Assembly (NCBI GenBank): GCA_023645945.1
Contig: JALAIB010000105.1
Span: 1 to 32,316 of the forward strand
Direction of reading: 5' to 3'
Source: Diploschistes diacapsis
Taxonomy: Eukaryota
DNA length: 32,316 nucleotides
A model generated the notes under the pieces. That model ran no database searches. It was not told where the DNA came from and saw nothing but the letters and a program-made list of their open reading frames with translations. Position 1 is the first letter of the stretch; each line of letters starts with the position of its first letter. Shown one piece after another: positions 1,487 through 26,112 of the stretch. A program made the translations under genes and the position numbers.

Positions 1487-1983
1487 CTACTTGATGCATC
1501 GTGATGCATCGTCGCGCTCCTGATGTCGAAATCACTGACTCCCGCCGACTTGGCCGTCTGCTGCGCGTCCCCCATATTCCGCGACGCTCGGTGGATCTCG
1601 ACCTGGGTGTCACTGGATCGAATGCCCGTGCGCTGTGCCACCGAGAGGTCCGCGGTGATGCCCCCCCATCCCCATCGCAGCCTACCGTGAGGTCTTGGCG
1701 TAGCTATTATGGCCCTGGCCGCTGGAACGAGCAAAACGTTATGATAGTCGCGGGTCGAAGGGAGCGGGTGGTGGGACTAGTCGCGTCAGATTAGGGCGGG
1801 GACATAGTCGGCGGGCTCGTACATTAGGTAATGGGATGCCGAACGGTGGAAACCGGTTGGTTCGTCTTCGAAGCCATAGTCTCACGGCTAGAGACCATAT
1901 TCATGGTGGTCTTGTACCTATGTTAGTGCTGGCACGGCAGCTAGTATTGCTGTGATCGCAAGGTGGAAGGGTCTAAGTTGCAT
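1487..1983 (-). pseudogene. Decayed gene for a small secreted Gly/His-rich protein
   Basis: ATG at 1983 gives a signal-peptide-like MQLRPFHLAITAILAAVPALT, then *VQDHHEYGL*P*DYGFEDEPTG. Stops at 1920-1918 (TAG), 1890-1888 (TAG) and 1884-1882 (TGA) each revert to Q/Q/R by one T>C change. The continuation needs a frameshift, so the 3' boundary is uncertain. Confidence 0.45.
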
Positions 1984-2826
1984 CTTTTCGATATTGGCGT
2001 CTGCCCAAGCGCTTTGAATGTTTTACCGACTCTAAGGCCTATACGAACGAATAGTGATACGGTTTTTGAAGGCGTTTGCGTGTTTAGAATGACAGGGACG
2101 AAAAACAAATACTGGATTTCATTCAGACGCTCTAAATGATGTGCAGGTTAGGGATGAACGTTGTAGTCAAGTGGAATTAATGCAGAATCAAAGAGAGAAA
2201 AGAGTTTAGGATGCTATAATCTATCAGGCACAAGGGGGGGGGGGGGATATTTTGTATCATGACTGGTCCTAAGACTGACCAAATCACCATTGGAAAGAAG
2301 ATCTGTCGGGGTTCACGCTTGAATTTCGTTGTAGTTCTATACAAATCGATCAATTGAGCTGAGGGGTGGTCTCTGTATGGACCGAAGGGGTGAGTGGAAG
2401 AAGCATGGAACTGCCACTTGCCTATCACTTTATTGTAGTTCATGACCGTCTGTGCGCGCAGGTATTGCACAGATACGTAAAGAATAGGATGACTGAGGCC
2501 AAGAATGAATAAAATATCCCAAATGACACTGGGTATTACCCAGCTGTGCTCCGAATATGACTCGAAGCTGAAGTACATGACGCCAATATAATCCTAGCTT
2601 TTGCCCCTTGACGGGCGGCTTGCTCACTATGCATTCTTGCAGTTGCCGGAAGGGGGTTGGAAAGTTAGAGTTTCTGTGCGCTTGCATGAAATTATAGGCT
2701 CTCTTTTATACTGTTTGTCTCTCATGTTTATTTACACAGCACAAGGATGAAGATCATGTTGGAGCTTGGCATCATACGGACTTTGGCCAGGTTATCTCGA
2801 GTCCAAGAGTAGGCCCATTAAAGTAA

Positions 2827-3833
2827 CTATTCATCTGACCCCTTGTTTGGCTTGTCCGCGTCGGGCCTAGCAGGCCGATAAGGGTCAATCGGTTGTAAAA
2901 CTCTTGATGAATCTGTAGATGGAATGCATCAGTTGTGGCAGGGAAAATTGAGTCACGGTCATTGATCCACTCACCATGCAGCCCTTCAACTTTCTTGCCC
3001 TTTGTCCCGTCTTCGTGTGGACTAGCCGAGTGCTTTGCGTGCGTTGGAACGGATTGCCCAGCGTCGTCTAATGCGTTTTTCTTGCCCCCTCGAAGCTGGA
3101 AGGTAATCAGCGCGGGAAAAACTGGTTGGTCAGAAATTGGCCTACCTTATCCACAGAATCTCCCCCACCACTCTCCTGGGCAGCAGTCCCTTTGTCTTCA
3201 CTTCCTTCCTCATCTGCCTCATCATCCGAGGTATTGGGGGTTTCATGTCCACTTTCCTCGTCGGTGCTTGAATCGCCGGACTCCATATCACGGTGTGACT
3301 CCATTTTCGAGTCTCCCTCAGAGTCTTGTTTCGGCTCTTCACGTGAATCTCCCTCGGATTCGGACTGCTTCGCATCGTCTTCTCCATCCTGGGATTCTTC
3401 GGTTGAGCCATCCTCCTGTGACTCTTCAGTGGATTCTTCCTGCTCTTCGTGGCCCTCATGGCCCTCATGGTCATGACCCTTGGCTCTTGGGGTTCCATTC
3501 ATCCATAGATAAGCACAGGCGGGCGCACCGACAGCGACAGATCCTAATGCCCTTTGATTGCAGACGATTTAGCGAAACTATACTAGAAGGGGATACGTAA
3601 ACGAAAGTGTAATAGCTTAACAGCAACGTTACACCCGTAAGCTAGGAAGGTAGAAAATATCGTTCATACCACGGCATATCGCTGGACGACTTATGTTCAC
3701 CATGACCTCCACTGGCATACCCTCTTCGTCCAACCAAGTTCCACGATGGCCTTGATGGAGAAGCTCTATGCGCTACAGGTCCAGCTCTGAAGATAGTCCT
3801 GCCACTGGACAAAATCCGCCGGACGAACGCCAT
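2827..3833 (-). CDS. Uncharacterised mitochondrial-targeted, single-TM, highly acidic protein (258 aa, 4 exons)
   Basis: Exons 3833-3670, 3551-3146, 3095-2975 and 2912-2827 join in frame (777 nt). It has an Arg-rich presequence ending GRRGYAS, then SSDMPW-ALGSVAVGAPACAYLW (TM-like), an E/D/S-rich tract, and a C-terminal KHSASP...KGKKVEG...IDPYRP. Intron 1 needs an AAG acceptor. Confidence 0.75.
3290..3475 (-). repeat. Short coding tandem duplications in the acidic tract (HEG x2, STEESQ(E)DG x2, KQ-x-SEGDS x2)
   Basis: Visible in the translation HEGHEGHEE...ESTEESQEDGSTEESQDG...KQSESEGDSREEPKQDSEGDS and in DNA (ggccctcatg/ggccctcatg; ggattcttc twice). Confidence 0.7.
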
Positions 3834-18810: not shown

Positions 18811-21192
18811 ATGTCTCTTTTCGGTTCGTCGCCTGATGATTCCGGTCTTATAAAGCCAGACTCTAGACATCAGTCCAAATCGCTCTTCGATGATGGACCC
18901 AAGGCGGCTCCTGAAGTGAACAACTCGCTCTTTGCAGACTACGGTGGCAATGAGTCGCCATGGTCCATACCGACCTCCAAGAAAGCTGGCCGAGACGAGC
19001 TCATTAGAAGCCTAATATCCCCTTCAGACGCACCCGAGAGCTATGTAAATGGTTTTGACGCAATATTAGAGAATGGAGGGAATATGAACAGCAGGTTGAG
19101 TCTTGAGGATGTAATGAAGCTCCTGCAGAGTAGCGGCATTCCCCAAGGCGACCAGACGTTAATACTTCGTCTTGTTTCCCCCGCTACTGCTACCGGCGTC
19201 GACAGGAATACGTTCAATTTGTTGATGGCGTTGATTGGTCTTGTGCAAGAAGGCGAGGAGGCATCGCTGGACGGGGTTGATGAAAGAAAGAAGAGTAAGG
19301 CCCAAGCTTGTATATAGGCAATAGCTTGCTTACGATGCTTCAGATCTTCCCGAACCATCGATACCCTATCTTGCTTCGCTCAAGACTACCAAAGTGTCAC
19401 AGAGCACTGCAAAGAGTAACGGACAAGATTCTTCGACTACTCAGGCAAGCTCCACCACATCCTCGCCATCAAAACAACGACAAGTTCACACAGGCTCCTT
19501 TAACGATTCTGAAGTGGATCCGTGGGCTAGTTCCGCTGCGCCAAGAAGTCAGACACAGCCAGTTCTCAACGATTCGACTCCGGACCGTAACGTTATTACA
19601 GCGGCACGACCACTCATATCTACCTCGGCGACAAGAACGACTAGCGCATTCACCACTAGCGCCCACGATCCTGACGCCTCCTCGAAAATGACCGGGACAA
19701 CGCTTGGCGATAACGCTGCTGGCAGTACAGCGGGCGCTTGGGGTGGTCCAGGAAACCCTGGATTCCCAGATACCAATCCAAGTGGTCTTGGCGGTGCCGG
19801 CTTTGGCTCAAACGACCGAGGCGACCAACCCAATGCTCGGTCTGGCCGTTCTTTTGGTGCAAATTTGAACCCCGTTAATAGAGCCGTGGAAGAATCTGTT
19901 ACAATCACTATATTGCCCGAGAAGGAGGGAATGTTCATGTTTCAACACCGTAATTACGAGGTCAAGAGCCCACGGCGCGGAAGTTCTGTCGTGCGGAGGT
20001 ACAGCGATTTCGTATGGCTTTTGGACTGTTTGCACAAAAGATATCCGTTTCGTCAATTACCACTTTTACCACCAAAGAGGGTAGCCTGTATGATAGTTTT
20101 CGCATGAGCATGAACTTGTCAAAATGCTAACGGAGATCCAGTCAATGGACGTCACTTATCGTCGGATATCCAGTTTATCGAGAAACGACGGCGTGGTTTA
20201 GTGAGATTCGCTAACGCTCTTGTGCGGCACCCTGTCCTTTGCCAGGAGCAGCTAGTTGTAATGTTCCTGACAGTACCGACGGTAGGGCAGGTTGTTATTG
20301 TGGAAGCTACCAATACTAATGCTGCACTCAGGAGCTGACGGTCTGGCGCAAACAGGCTACCATTTCCGTACAAGAAGAGTTCACCGGCAAAATCCTACCA
20401 CCAGGCTTGGAGGACTCGCTTCCCGCTAACCTCCAGGACACTTTTGATACTGTGCGTAATGGGGTGCGGAAATCAGCGGAGATTTACATTGGGCTGTGCA
20501 ACCTCATCGAGCGGCTGGCGAAGCGGAACCAGGGCATTGCGGCCGACTCACTCCGCTTTTCTCAGTCATTACGCTCGCTAACGGAAGAGTCAGACCCCAC
20601 TTATGCTACAGATACAAACGACGTTCCGTTACTGAACGAAGGCATCAAAGCAACCGCAAAGCATTTCGAGACTAGCCATAGTCTATTGGAGGACGAAGCC
20701 CAGGCTTGGGATGAAGGTGTTTTGGAGGACATGAAAAGGCAAAGAGACTGCCTCGTCAGCGTCAGAGACATGTTTGACCGCCATGATCGCTTCGCCAAGG
20801 ATAATATACCACAGTTGGAGAGACGAATAGAAAGTAATGAGGCCAAGCTTGCGAGCATTCGAGCGAAGCCGGAGGGCTCGGTCAAGCCTGGAGAGCTAGA
20901 GAAGGTTGAACAAGCTATTCTCGGTGTAAGCGTAGCCATCAATTGCGGGCATTATCGAATTACTGACTGACCTGTTTAGGATAAACAATCCATAGTCAGC
21001 CAGCATTCCCGTGATGTATTTATAAAGGAGTGCATAAGGGATGAGCTGGGTTTCCTCCAGCAGTCGCAGTACCACGTGAGCAAGCTCCATCAAGAATGGA
21101 GCCAAGAGTTGGTAAAATACTCTGAGCTACAAGCCGATAACTGGAGAGCTCTGAGCGAGGAAGTGGAAAACATGCCAACGGGCGAATCATAA
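18811..21192 (+). CDS. MVP1: Sorting nexin Mvp1 (PX-BAR), 724 aa
   Basis: Exons 18811-19294, 19344-20087, 20142-20281, 20332-20925 and 20980-21192 (2175 nt). MSLFG start; PX motifs EKEGMFMFQHRNYEV, VRRYSDFVWLLDCLHKRYPFRQLPLLPPKR and FIEKRRRGLVRF; helical BAR C-terminus. Confidence 0.95.
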
Positions 21193-21585: not shown

Positions 21586-24500
21586 ATGCCTGCCTTTAAC
21601 TCGCAGCAACGAGCTGCCCTCAGAGACTTTGTCGAGACCACGGGTGCTAAGGAAAGCGTAGCTGTAAAAGTAAGTGAGAATTACTTCCTCATCACTTCCA
21701 TGTTGCGACGAGTTTCCGTAACAGTAGAGATGGCAAGAGGAAAGAACGCCGGACTGACCTATATATTTTAGCAATTGAGAGCGTCGGGATGGAATCCCAA
21801 CGCAGCTGTCGATACGTATGTACTGGTTCTTCATTTCACTATTCATATCTCTATCTTGTGGATTATCGACTCGCTTCTTATGTATCACCGTCCTTTCCGT
21901 GTTATTCTTCCCTTGCAGCGTTTCGGAATATCACTATCTAGTGGAGGAAATATTCTGGGTCGCTCGAGGGCGTTGGACTTAATCCCGAGCGTATCTCGAG
22001 AACATTTGACGGGTGTCGAATTACTGCTCTACGCTAGTGACGGGTCCGAGACAGGAAAGGCAACACAGGCAGTTGTCTATCTTGAAGAAAAAACCGGGGC
22101 ATCTTCCATCTATTCTCGACATTATCTGGACACGTCCAGTCGTCTAGTTCTAAGGGTTTACACGGACTTTCAGAAAAGGAGATCGTCCTTTCGGCAGCCC
22201 TTAACATTTCCTCGATTTATGTTAGGTACCCGACCGACAGCTGTCATCTTTCATTACAATGGCTGAGCACCCCGACGAAGACGGTTCAGAGCAAAGGCCT
22301 ACCAAATTCAATGTTGAAGGGGCAGATGAAATATGTGAAACCTTTATCAAGCTCTTCAGGAAGACGACAGTAGGGCAGAAGCTTGAGACATCTGAAAGAG
22401 AACTCGAAGATGATCCCGATCTACCTCGCGGCCGAAGGCGCCACAAACCCTATTACCCCCCTAGGGTAACCCCAAAATATCTAACTACAGAGTTGAGAAT
22501 CCATCTGCGGAGTTTGGCAAAGGAGTGGATTGCACAGTATCGCAGCGGCGACCTCACTTCCAAAGAGCTTCGAAGACGAATGGCACTTGAGATTGAACGC
22601 TCATTCAAGAGCTTCTGGGCACTCTCCGCCTTTGCACGTGAGGAGCTTAATTTAGATTTTGACGATCCAGACCGGCCTGAACTCGAGGTTCGAAAAGAAA
22701 ACCTAGCTGCGGAAGAGGAATCAGAGAAGAGAAAGCGGGAATTAGAGTCAAAAGCTCTCACAATACAACCGGTATCCAGAAAAGCCGAGAAGAAGCCTCT
22801 GGTCTGTCAGAGGGATGACGGCACACGTGACTACCACCCAGGCTACGAAAATTCCATGAAAGTGACGAATACGGGTTCAAGCGATGCAGTCCGCGATGTT
22901 GACTTGATGAAAGTGGACGAAGACGATTTGAAAGCTGGCAGAGTGTTTATCACCAGAGTCCCTCTCATAAATGAGATCCGGGACGCTATCACGGATACGA
23001 GATTGGGGCTTAAGAAGTGGAAATTCCAAGAGATCTGCGACTTCATCAGTGAGTCAGCAGGATTTCCTCTTTATCTATCTTATTTTGAGAAGAGTTTTTA
23101 CGAAGGGGAAGTTCCGGCAGCAACTGTCGCTCAAAGTATATGCGACCTCAATCAAGTTCCTCCCGACTTCATGGTTGGTGAAACAGTCAAGGATACGCTT
23201 AAACGCGGCGCTTTACGTGACGTTGTTTTAGAACACCTAAGTCATTTGGTTTCCCATTCAAGAGCCGGCACCATGAATCCGAATTTGGCTCAAGAATTTG
23301 CTGTTGATACCCTTCAATTCTCTGCAGATTTTGGAAGTGCCCTTGAACACTTTCAATTGCTTTGTCAAAGTCACGAAATTGAACCTTCGGCTGCAGCTCA
23401 ACTTGCTTGGGCCGAACACATAGATAATGACTTTGTGTTCGAAAAACACGTATTAGAGGAATTTTCTGACATCTACCTGGGTACCCGGTCTGACGACACA
23501 GTGCCTACGTGGACTGGAGCCTTGTACGAGCCGCCGTTCCACTGTCGTGAGCAGTTTCATTCCCTAATGACGAAAGTCTTTGATGGATGCCGAGGTGGCA
23601 AATGGAGCATTATATGGGCAGATAAGTTGGTTCGTCATTTCTATGGCAGAAGAGCCCCAGCACTTCCTGACCTCGAGTTGTGGATCTCCAGAACGGACAT
23701 GACTTCAGTTGATCTAGCAGACAAAATCTGGCATAGCGTTCCGGAAAAAGACGATTGGGACTTGATGCTTCAAACACACAACGACGTATACATTAAGAAG
23801 AAGATGCGGCAGATGCAGGAAGATCTCGAGAAACGAGCCAAACGAGCTCAGGACACTATAATTGAATCATATCGGGAAGTCGGCAATGGAGCCGAAGTCC
23901 TCCCCAAGCTCTCAAAACTTAGGATTATGTATCCAAACAAGCGTCGCATGCTGGACATAGCAGAAGACATCATCAATGGCCGGACCAGCTTACGAAGAGC
24001 TCGAAAGCTACTTAAGAGCCTCGAGACCGGAATTGATTTACGAGCTCTTTGGAAAAAGATGTATCAGAACGGACTAGATCCTGTCTATTTCTATGGGGGA
24101 GAAATTTCTAGAGCCATGGGATATGAAGTCTTCGCACGTTCGCCATTGCATGGAAAATGGGACAAGGACCACCAACATGATATAATGAGACAGCCACTCT
24201 ACTTTCCAGATGGTGCCGGAATTTCTGATAGTGATGGAGAAACCGAGGGCCTATGGGGCCTCCGTATGCCGACTGAGGATGCGAAAAAATGGGCAAGGCA
24301 GTTGAAGCTCAGAGAAGATTTGGTCGAGGGCAACCACAAAAACCTGAAATTGAAGCGCAAAGAACAAGCAGTAAGACGATTTATCATGGGTGAGGAGCCC
24401 CCGCATACGTCCAGAGGGTCATACCATGCTCCTATGAAGCGTACGGCGAGTAAAGAGCTATCAGCTATCCCTCCAAAACGCTCGAAAACGCCCTCCCCAA

Positions 24501-26112
24501 TCCCGTCGGATGGCCCTCAAAACTCGACAGAAGAAACAAGTGTTGAGGAATCCGAGCATACTCTCGCCTTACTTACACGGCCTGTCCGTCGTTCAGACCT
24601 GTCTACTTCTTCACCTTCACTTGGCCTCGGTATTACCAGCTCTGTCACGGCAGTCTCAGGATCTGGTGAAGGTTGCATAGAAAGGCCAATACCGGGACAT
24701 GCAGCCCATGAACGTACAAGCAGCCACCCGTACTCGCCTCCTTTCTCGACTTTTTCCACGCTTCTATCATCGCTTCCGTCCTCTCCTGGATTTGCAGACT
24801 TGACATTTCAAGATCCTGGTCACGCAAACAAGCCATCCACTGCATCAAATAACAGTGGTCCGTCATCTCCAAGGCCCGGCCGAAGGGAATTGGCAGTGCA
24901 TCCTCCTTCGCTTGGCGACAATTCTGCATCTCCCCCGTCTCCAAGGCCAGGGCATATGCAATTACCAACTGGCCCTGCTCAAGTGAGAAGATCCCCGCAA
25001 TCTCATTCTCCTCCTCCTACTCCTCCTCGGGCACCAATTAGCGAAGAAGGTCAAGGGCAATTGACGACGCGTCAGCCGGAATTTCGTCCTCCTGGTCCTC
25101 GGGTCTCAATCCGTAGGACAGAATCTTCACCAACGAAGCGTTCCCAACGCGAAGGGACACCATTTCCAGGATAAAGTGCAATGCTTCAAGTCTGCAATAA
25201 CCCTGACGCACTAACTCATGGAATAGTGCTGCGATTCTTTCCAAGGCTCTTTTACCCATTAAATGAGGGTTTCCTGTCTTTGTACTCGATTCTTTTCTTG
25301 CCTTTGTTCATTTTGTTCTGTACACTGATTGAATTTATCGCTACTAGTTATTTCCAAACGGCCTCGTCTGCTCCGAAGAAAATATCATTGAGGCCGGCTC
25401 TGAACAAAGTCTTTGATAAATATCGAGGTTCGTTGTGTTTCTGGAACGGGAATCGTAACTGACCATCGCAGATGACAGCTCAAGCCCGGATCAGATCGGC
25501 GCCGAAGGTACCATGACGTACCTCACCGAGATCAAGGTGTCATTGGAAGAGTGTGCTATGTTGGCCGTTCTTACCCAGCTGAAGGCACCGACAATGGGAG
25601 AGCTTACAAGAGAAGGTTTCATAAGCGGCTGGGAGGAGCTCTCAGCGGATACAATCGAGAAACAGAAGACACACGTGGCTCATTTTCGTTCCGAAATCAA
25701 GAGTAATCACGACTTCTTTCGCAATGTGTATCGTCATTCCTTTTATCTTGCTCGATCTCCGGGACAGAAATCAGTTGCCCTCGACGCAGCTATTGAGTTT
25801 TGGCGCATGCTATTCTCACCGGAGAGTGGACTGGACTGGAGCTCCGGCGGGTTCAGCTGGCTAGACCACTACGTCACCTTCATCCAGGACAAATGGAAGA
25901 AGAGTATCGGAAAGGATCTATGGCACCAGACACTGTTTTTTGCTCAAAAGACAATTGATGATCCCTCGCTATCATGGTGGAACGAAATAGAGTCTGCGTG
26001 GCCTAGCGTTTTGGACGAATTTGCTGCTCATGTCAAGTCATTGCCGGAGTATTCGATGAACCTAAAGCCGCTGGGATCAGGTGCCGGCGATGGTATGGAC
26101 ACGCGAGAATGA
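21586..26112 (+). CDS. DCN1: Defective in cullin neddylation protein 1 (UBA-like + PONY/cullin-binding domain), 282 aa, interrupted by a 3.5-kb intron
   Basis: Exons 21586-21669, 21772-21815, 25348-25427 and 25472-26112 total 849 nt, in frame: MPAFNSQQRAALRDFVETTGAKESVAVK|QLRASGWNPNAAVDT|YFQ...LNKVFDKYR|DDSSSPDQIGAEGTMTYL...APTMGELTREGFISGW...GQKSVALDAAIEFWRMLF...KKSIGKDLW...SAWPSVLDEF. The UBA-like motif W-N...AVD-x-YF is split exactly across the long intron. Confidence 0.92.
21816..25347 (+). other. Giant (3,532-nt) spliceosomal intron 2 of DCN1 hosting a nested ORF
   Basis: Donor GTATGT at 21816. Long pyrimidine tract about 25270-25320, branch CTGAT at 25325-25329, acceptor TAG at 25345-25347. 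The phase-2 junction (AC|T) restores AVDT-YFQ. Confidence 0.85.
22259..25174 (+). CDS. Uncharacterised 971-aa intronless protein nested in DCN1 intron 2 (helical repeats plus Pro/Ser-rich disordered tail)
   Basis: Uninterrupted 2,916-nt ORF with a good start context (ACAATGG), protein-like composition and basic NLS-like clusters (RGRRRHK, KRKRE, PPKRSK). I recognise no transposase, RT, integrase or homing-endonuclease motifs. Confidence 0.8.
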   Translation: MAEHPDEDGSEQRPTKFNVEGADEICETFIKLFRKTTVGQKLETSERELEDDPDLPRGRRRHKPYYPPRVTPKYLTTELRIHLRSLAKEWIAQYRSGDLTSKELRRRMALEIERSFKSFWALSAFAREELNLDFDDPDRPELEVRKENLAAEEESEKRKRELESKALTIQPVSRKAEKKPLVCQRDDGTRDYHPGYENSMKVTNTGSSDAVRDVDLMKVDEDDLKAGRVFITRVPLINEIRDAITDTRLGLKKWKFQEICDFISESAGFPLYLSYFEKSFYEGEVPAATVAQSICDLNQVPPDFMVGETVKDTLKRGALRDVVLEHLSHLVSHSRAGTMNPNLAQEFAVDTLQFSADFGSALEHFQLLCQSHEIEPSAAAQLAWAEHIDNDFVFEKHVLEEFSDIYLGTRSDDTVPTWTGALYEPPFHCREQFHSLMTKVFDGCRGGKWSIIWADKLVRHFYGRRAPALPDLELWISRTDMTSVDLADKIWHSVPEKDDWDLMLQTHNDVYIKKKMRQMQEDLEKRAKRAQDTIIESYREVGNGAEVLPKLSKLRIMYPNKRRMLDIAEDIINGRTSLRRARKLLKSLETGIDLRALWKKMYQNGLDPVYFYGGEISRAMGYEVFARSPLHGKWDKDHQHDIMRQPLYFPDGAGISDSDGETEGLWGLRMPTEDAKKWARQLKLREDLVEGNHKNLKLKRKEQAVRRFIMGEEPPHTSRGSYHAPMKRTASKELSAIPPKRSKTPSPIPSDGPQNSTEETSVEESEHTLALLTRPVRRSDLSTSSPSLGLGITSSVTAVSGSGEGCIERPIPGHAAHERTSSHPYSPPFSTFSTLLSSLPSSPGFADLTFQDPGHANKPSTASNNSGPSSPRPGRRELAVHPPSLGDNSASPPSPRPGHMQLPTGPAQVRRSPQSHSPPPTPPRAPISEEGQGQLTTRQPEFRPPGPRVSIRRTESSPTKRSQREGTPFPG

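Follow-up and report, generated by a model that had tools for sequence, protein, structure and literature searches.

A large open reading frame within intron 2 of the DCN1 gene of Diploschistes diacapsis and its relation to the cullin-binding exons

DCN1 is a scaffold-type E3 that promotes the neddylation of cullins, and the place and target of its action are believed to depend on the N-terminal module. The mammalian proteins DCNL1-5 have the PONY (cullin-binding) domain in common and differ in their N-terminal parts, which are of UBA, membrane-targeting or nuclear type. Same-strand genes nested in introns and alternative first exons are both known kinds of arrangement, and introns of several kilobases are not expected in fungi. 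We discuss here the DCN1 gene of Diploschistes diacapsis (assembly GCA_023645945.1, contig JALAIB010000105.1, positions 1 to 32,316 of the forward strand, the whole of this 32,316-nucleotide (nt) stretch being referred to as the window), in which the second intron holds an open reading frame (ORF) of 971 codons on the same strand and in the frame of the DCN1 exon that follows. We think it rather probable that this ORF is a separate protein-coding gene nested in DCN1 intron 2, and there are also relatives of the locus in other fungi in which a large ORF in the same intron runs directly into the PONY-encoding exons.

The locus is like the same-strand nested intronic genes of other eukaryotes in that the ORF is complete, with its own start and stop, and the host exons are intact and colinear with homologues. 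It differs from them in that the host intron is about 60 times as long as the usual intron of the window (44-60 nt), in that the nested stop is 173 nt from the next host exon and in the same frame, and in that ORFs of doubtful relatedness to one another occupy this same DCN1 intron in several fungal lineages. A limited literature search found no description of large same-strand ORFs recurring in this DCN1 intron in fungi of two classes, nor of a lineage that has the in-frame fused form. The features of the host gene and the nested ORF are as follows (numbers with P and L are our handles for proteins and loci).

21586..21669, + strand: DCN1 exon 1, with the first part of the UBA-like domain; ATG at 21586, donor GTAAGT at 21670; colinear with P0042 and P0035
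21772..21815, + strand: DCN1 exon 2, end of the UBA-like domain; donor GTATGT at 21816; ends two bases into a codon
21816..25347, + strand: DCN1 intron 2, 3532 nt, holding the nested ORF; placed by homology of the flanking exons
22259..25174, + strand: nested ORF, 971 codons and TAA (protein P0001), from the ORF listing; no Pfam family
25148..25171, + strand: conserved C-terminal motif REGTPFPG, shared with the ends of P0040 and P0039
25172..25174, + strand: TAA stop of the nested ORF, next base A, from the sequence and the ORF listing
25175..25347, + strand: 57 open codons, in one frame with both exon 3 and the nested ORF; the 3' end of intron 2, rich in T (38.7%)
25325..25347, + strand: branch-like CTGAT and acceptor TAG of DCN1 intron 2
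25348..25427, + strand: DCN1 exon 3, YFQTASSAPKK...NKVFDKYR
25428..25471, + strand: DCN1 intron 3, 44 nt, donor GTTCGT
25472..26112, + strand: DCN1 exon 4, cullin-binding (PONY) domain (PF03556) and stop

By homology the window carries a canonical fungal DCN1, with the UBA-like part in exons 1 and 2 and the PONY part in exons 3 and 4. The translation of exon 4 (P0003) matches PF03556 with an E value of 7.7e-28 and a score of 97.7 bits, the cut-off being 27.9. Exons 1-4 when joined give 849 nt or 282 codons with a single terminal stop, so that after splicing the UBA-like and PONY parts are in a single reading frame, and this model has 175 identities to the 287-residue DCN1 protein P0042. Its UBA-like N-terminus aligns residue for residue with P0042 and with P0035, the latter having a precomputed PF14555 assignment, and the joint of exons 2 and 3 (...AAVDT/YFQ) coincides with a continuous stretch of the same two homologues (...AAVDAYFQ in P0042). 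Intron 1 is 102 nt, and most of the likely real introns in the window are 44-60 nt. In the spliced model the nested ORF lies wholly between the host donor and acceptor, and the host exons join in frame.

The nested ORF is also, on the evidence of its conservation, a real gene. When a complete set of 1.84 billion representative proteins was searched with HMMER, three relatives of P0001 were found, namely P0038, P0039 and P0040 (E values 3e-100, 5e-98 and 3e-59), with 33-36% identity to it. They are on contigs of 16392, 64567 and 90664 nt, equal in size to the contigs of the DCN1 proteins P0008, P0007 and P0006 respectively, and from the equal sizes we read that the nested gene is linked to DCN1 in all four species. 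The window protein ends REGTPFPG, P0040 ends REGTPMPGSR and P0039 ends REDTPYL, the stop coming 0-2 residues after the motif in two of the three relatives and hence in three of the four family proteins; P0038 ends differently. Since this C-terminus is shared, and with it the place of the stop, the TAA at 25172 is to all appearance a genuine and evolutionarily conserved stop at which the main product ends, and its presence at the same place in three of four proteins that are only 33-36% identical argues that it is old. TAA followed by A is the most efficient terminator context in eukaryotes, and by this rule the stop is not in a leaky context.

The AlphaFold model of the nested protein has a mean predicted local distance difference test (pLDDT) of 51, with an all-alpha core at about residues 233-535, and we read residues 703-971, which have pLDDT below 50 and no secondary structure, as probably disordered. 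No Pfam family was found at E values up to 0.1 for the nested protein or its relatives, there was no usable match in the ESM Atlas, and a Foldseek search of the model against the PDB gave no match at E values up to 0.001. A scan with the nested-ORF alignment gave 265 pattern matches in the metagenome_contigs collection and 33 in genome_contigs, none of them confirmed in either. There is a 29-nt direct repeat (79% identity, same frame) between 23568-23596 of the nested ORF (TKVFDGCRG) and 25401-25429 in exon 3 (NKVFDKYRG), which is probably due to chance. Derivation of the nested ORF from a diverged DCN1 copy was considered and rejected, as BLASTP against P0035 gave an E value of 0.11, and hhalign against the DCN1 alignment gave an E value of 0.45 over 13 columns.

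As a separate gene the nested ORF would have its own promoter inside intron 2, and would start at ATG 22259 and end at TAA 25172, while DCN1 mRNA would be made by splicing from 21815 to 25348 over the entire nested gene. The nested transcript would end within the 173 nt before exon 3, or would continue into the DCN1 exons as 3' untranslated region. Splicing over such an intron is supported by a case from another fungus. Locus L001 (1-1360) is identical to L079 (1155-4103) at 100% in three blocks, minus 1539 nt and a 46-nt intron, and the 1539 nt absent from L001 are L079 1559-3097, which hold a 384-codon nested ORF (1915-3066). With three blocks at 100% and the introns precisely removed, L001 is a spliced DCN1 mRNA copy of the L079 locus. 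The metagenome_contigs collection thus includes transcript-derived contigs.

There are several observations that weigh against a separate gene, and it is convenient to take them together. The stop-to-stop ORF 22226-25174 (with its ATG at 22259) terminates, by the standard code, in TAA 25172-25174, and is followed in its frame by the ORF 25175-25462, which enters the DCN1 exon-3 peptide YFQTASSAPKK at 25348. The first-pass annotation had claimed that the nested ORF and exon 3 are in one frame, interrupted only by this TAA, and a reading of the sequence and of the ORF listing bears this out; the other two frames of 25175-25347 are closed. When these 173 nt are shuffled the frame is open in 1099 of 20000 mononucleotide shuffles and in 271 of 5000 dinucleotide shuffles, and the joint chance of frame match and openness is 1/3 x 0.055, or about 0.018. 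The prior of 1 in 3 that had been put forward for the frame match is right for frame alone but does not hold once the openness is counted. The gap of just 173 nt leaves little space for an independent 3' end, so that nested transcripts are likely to enter the DCN1 exons, and a run-on transcript with a spliced intron 3' of its stop should attract nonsense-mediated decay. The codon log-odds after the stop, at +0.07 per codon, would be compatible with coding sequence, as real coding windows (mean 0.17, standard deviation 0.12) include values of this size. A splice-like candidate intron with a length divisible by three spans the stop, for which the base rate is 7%, and a second candidate, 25071-25226 (156 nt, also divisible by three), spans it likewise. 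Finally, in the loci L002 and L064, discussed below, exon 3 is joined in frame to a large ORF housed by this intron, and the ORF family of these loci has a weak but position-consistent similarity to that of the window.

The first alternative, which we consider unlikely, is that of a fusion isoform, in which, in some of the transcripts coming from the promoter of the nested gene, an intron at 25113-25226 or 25071-25226 removes the stop and the ORF is read through 25227-25347 into exons 3 and 4, to give a DCN1 of about 1231 residues with the nested protein in place of the UBA-like domain. The candidate signals are as follows.

25071..25076, + strand: GTCAGC, donor in a public chimeric model and second candidate donor giving a length divisible by three
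25113..25118, + strand: candidate donor GTAGGA, which fits the loose GTNNG donor pattern
25181..25183, + strand: in-frame ATG, six bases 3' of the stop; candidate start of a 295-codon PONY-only form with a hydrophobic N-terminus
25203..25226, + strand: candidate branch motifs CTGAC (25203-25207) and CTAAC (25211-25215) and candidate acceptor TAG (25224-25226)

All of the motifs named in the first-pass annotation (GTAGGA, CTGAC, CTAAC, TAG and ATG) are where it had placed them, and its candidate intron 25113-25226 is indeed 114 nt, a multiple of three, and keeps the frame. Its further point that GTAGG donors are used elsewhere in the window is also sound in that GTAGG is found at 20282 on the + strand and at 3141-3145 on the minus strand, both at places where ORF continuity suggests real short introns. 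The donors that best restore ORF continuity are all GTNNG (read by eye from a noisy list), and the likely donors in the window are GTAAGT, GTATGT, GTAAGC, GTATGA, GTCCGT, GTGCGG, GTTCGG, GTTCGT, GTAGGC and GTAGGG. A fusion isoform can thus call on two candidates spanning the stop, on GTNNG donors, including GTAGGG and GTAGGC, that are apparently used in the window, on a candidate branch-to-acceptor spacing like that of the real introns of DCN1, and on the low joint chance of frame match and open stretch. However little weight can be put on the splice-like signals by themselves, which are apparently ordinary for this genome in donor, branch and acceptor alike, since GTAGG is at its expected frequency (38 in the window, 40 expected) and pseudo-introns of this quality are common: with the pattern GTNNG...CTRAY...YAG, 45-200 nt and a length divisible by three, they span 209 of 2989 codon positions (7%) within the long ORFs of the window. 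The candidate introns, at 114-156 nt, are also long in comparison with most of the likely real introns, the donor at 25113 would delete the conserved REGTPFPG tail, and the 40 codons that the fusion would add are a phenylalanine- and leucine-rich string resembling a membrane helix, as expected if a T-rich intron end is being translated. No donor that joins acceptor 25347 in frame was found by eye in the last 150 nt of the nested ORF, and a scan gave none within 200 nt. The best explanation of the 57 open codons is that they belong to the main product of neither gene.

The same-strand gene upstream of DCN1 (19325-21192), the peptides of which resemble what we take to be a PX-domain sorting nexin, has several short introns with likely donors GTATGA at 20088, GTAGGG at 20282 and GTAAGC at 20926, and their variety shows a loose 5' splice consensus in this genome.

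A fusion already exists as annotation. The public model P0041, of 1150 residues, which is in the 90% cluster of P0001 and which NCBI lists as hypothetical, from a metagenome-assembled genome (MAG) of Diploschistes diacapsis, joins the nested ORF as far as ...QLTT directly to exon 4 through the GTCAGC donor at 25071; exon 3 is passed over, and the UBA-like exons are missing from the model. We take this fusion to be probably a gene-prediction artefact. The annotations of the analogous loci of Alternaria (P0104-P0116) and Parastagonospora nodorum (P0079, P0125) disagree, with three or more mutually incompatible kinds in Alternaria: there are models of 665 and 682 residues that join the UBA part, the ORF body and PONY; models of 454 and 478 residues with UBA and ORF, beside a PONY-only gene of 220 residues; and separate hypothetical proteins of 412-525 residues. 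The fused models of Alternaria and Parastagonospora skip the most conserved N-terminal motif of their ORF family. P0041 is like other chimeric automatic gene models in fusing the nested ORF to a PONY exon, but the junctions of these models are weak and mutually inconsistent and conserved parts are skipped, and for that reason they are no evidence for a real isoform. The two locus tags of the P. nodorum homologue were not found in the limited literature search.

Comparison with other fungi is by a DCN1 scan of metagenome_contigs, which gave 80 loci, with the UBA-like part and exon 3 both found in 55; the other 25, without one or both parts, are not in the counts. In 21 of the 55 fungal loci over 1 kb separates the UBA-like part from exon 3. 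None of the 80 loci was matched by the four proteins of the nested family in a tblastn search. In a lichen-like lineage made up of L002, seven loci near-identical to it (94-100%) and L064 (amino-acid identity of about 50%), the intron is filled by an ORF of about 1250 codons, which crosses the acceptor and enters exon 3 in frame with no stop intervening (L002 6123-10190; L064 1909-3246). Over the last 78 codons before exon 3 L002 and L064 have no indel, 40 identical residues, and 20, 19 and 36 differences at the first, second and third codon positions, which is a coding-type pattern. For L002 and L064 it is hard, from these sequences, to avoid a long form of DCN1, of about 1450 residues, that has a giant exon at its N-terminus.

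The window shares with L002 and L064 the intron, the strand, the exon-3 frame relation and a broad clade of the DCN1 tree. It differs in that the nested ORF is not continuous with exon 3, as there is a conserved stop, which L002 and L064 lack, and then a T-rich stretch encoding hydrophobic residues; the 40 membrane-helix-like residues that a fusion would add have no counterpart in them. The proposal in the first-pass annotation that the intronic ORF is a giant alternative N-terminal exon of DCN1 therefore stands as a general idea, being borne out in L002 and L064. For the window a bypass of the stop is not indicated, since the conserved tail would be deleted, pseudo-introns are common and the added string is hydrophobic.

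A second set of large ORFs in this intron is found in Dothideomycetes. The family, beginning MFGSSEDRARQLAGR, is present in L013, L015, L016, L023, L024 and L025 (the same as L027 and L029), and also in L036 (the same as L037) and L079 (the same as L078). Among its 39 database relatives there are two from named organisms, proteins of Parastagonospora and Paraphoma, and Alternaria members were found in the cluster look-up; PF03556 is present in none of the 39, going by the precomputed column. In six lineages the ORF ends in a stop of its own, 12-85 nt short of exon 3, and in one lineage of eight it is in the frame of exon 3, so that the frame relation looks random. The first-pass annotation had looked to the frame relation in relatives, and in the one family that allowed the comparison, the Dothideomycete one, the relation is of this random kind. 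Across the loci the length of open frame upstream of exon 3 gave no consistent signal. The stop is variable among strains that are otherwise nearly the same. That of L025 is a TAG, which is a sense codon in L027, where the ORF is 11 codons longer, and the stop of the L023 ORF (1491-2999) is absent in the 98%-identical P0044, which continues into exon 3 and PONY. The notion that all nested ORFs splice to exon 3 was also tried, by eye, and is not supported: near the ORF ends there is an in-phase GT in L015, L023, L025 and L036, some of them inside conserved coding sequence, and none in L024.

There are also large introns without a large ORF. L046, L049/L051 and L069/L076 have introns of 2.0-2.5 kb at the same position with no same-strand ORF of more than 154 codons, the longest on either strand being 177 codons. 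The representatives are as follows.

L046, 7411-9863: large intron without a large ORF
L049, 7920-9874: large intron without a large ORF
L069, 6760-8992: large intron without a large ORF

In L046 a short piece of an L002-type ORF is left over in the 2.5-kb intron (E value 1.4e-5), and the pattern suggests that intronic ORFs may decay and leave large introns behind.

The relationship between the ORF families bears on a fusion isoform and also on another reading of the frame relation. With hhalign the window and L002 families match with an E value of 0.002 but a probability of only 14%, around GLWGLRMP...AKK. The window-family profile scores 9.9 bits on L002, which none of 500 local shuffles matched, and in the reverse comparison the same motif is found in all four window-family proteins, with 3, 5, 0 and 2 of 250 shuffles reaching it. 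No homology was shown by hhalign between the Dothideomycete family and the window or L002 family (E values 0.12 and 0.63). In the DCN1 tree (79 rows, 62 after removal of identical sequences, and without the loci having a best match of less than 150 residues, among them L046, L049, L064 and L069) the window groups with P0006, P0007, P0008 and P0013 with support 100/100, and this group and the L002 group are together in a 14-row clade with support 99/91. That the stop-free fused architecture of L002 and L064 is found within the wider clade of the window is a further point for a fusion isoform.

It would also fit a historical trace, in which the ancestor had an in-frame fusion like that of L002 and L064, the window lineage gained a stop, and the open stretch is a functionless remnant. 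The two ORF families have the same location, strand and clade, their similarity is weak but position-consistent, and the decayed remnant in L046 indicates that such ORFs come and go. However the stop is old, being 0-2 residues behind the shared tail in three of the four family proteins, and an unselected stretch of 57 codons should long since have gained stops or indels, and we regard a historical trace as improbable, somewhat more so than a fusion isoform.

Translational coupling on one mRNA, by rare read-through of the TAA or by re-initiation at ATG 25181 to give a 295-residue PONY-only DCN1 with a hydrophobic N-terminal anchor, is very improbable: the frame stays open beyond the stop, which is closely followed by an ATG having G at -3, and the gene calls of two DCN1 relatives, P0013 (36 codons) and P0022 (42 codons), start at an in-frame ATG before exon 3 and have hydrophobic leaders, but such upstream starts come from ORF callers, which always choose the longest frame, the frame that is open varies across loci and is not regularly that of exon 3, TAA followed by A is a poor context for read-through, and one would not expect re-initiation behind an ORF of 971 codons.

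We prefer a separate nested gene because of the conserved stop and tail, the terminator context, the hydrophobic nature of the peptide that a fusion would add, the random frame relation in the Dothideomycete family and the high frequency of pseudo-introns. It is doubtful, though worth keeping in mind, that the lichen-forming fungi have a two-promoter DCN1 unit, in which an upstream promoter would give the UBA-PONY protein and a promoter in intron 2 a very large protein, alone or with a C-terminal PONY domain, both being made in the window species. In that case the main product of the intron-2 promoter would be the 971-residue protein, and the form of about 1231 residues would bring an all-alpha domain to the cullin-neddylation scaffold. 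If the fusion exists there would be a likeness to mammalian DCNL1-5, as one PONY domain would have interchangeable N-terminal modules, the difference being that in mammals these are on separate paralogous genes and here there would be one locus with a candidate internal promoter.

With its chimeric, split and partial models the locus is mis-annotated in public records, and should be a useful test case for fungal gene prediction. If the housing of a large same-strand ORF between the UBA-like and PONY parts is a conserved habit, with fusion to PONY in one lineage or more, it would amount to a natural experiment in which the N-terminus of DCN1 is exchanged, and would offer a clear example among fungi of genes fused or split by way of an intron.

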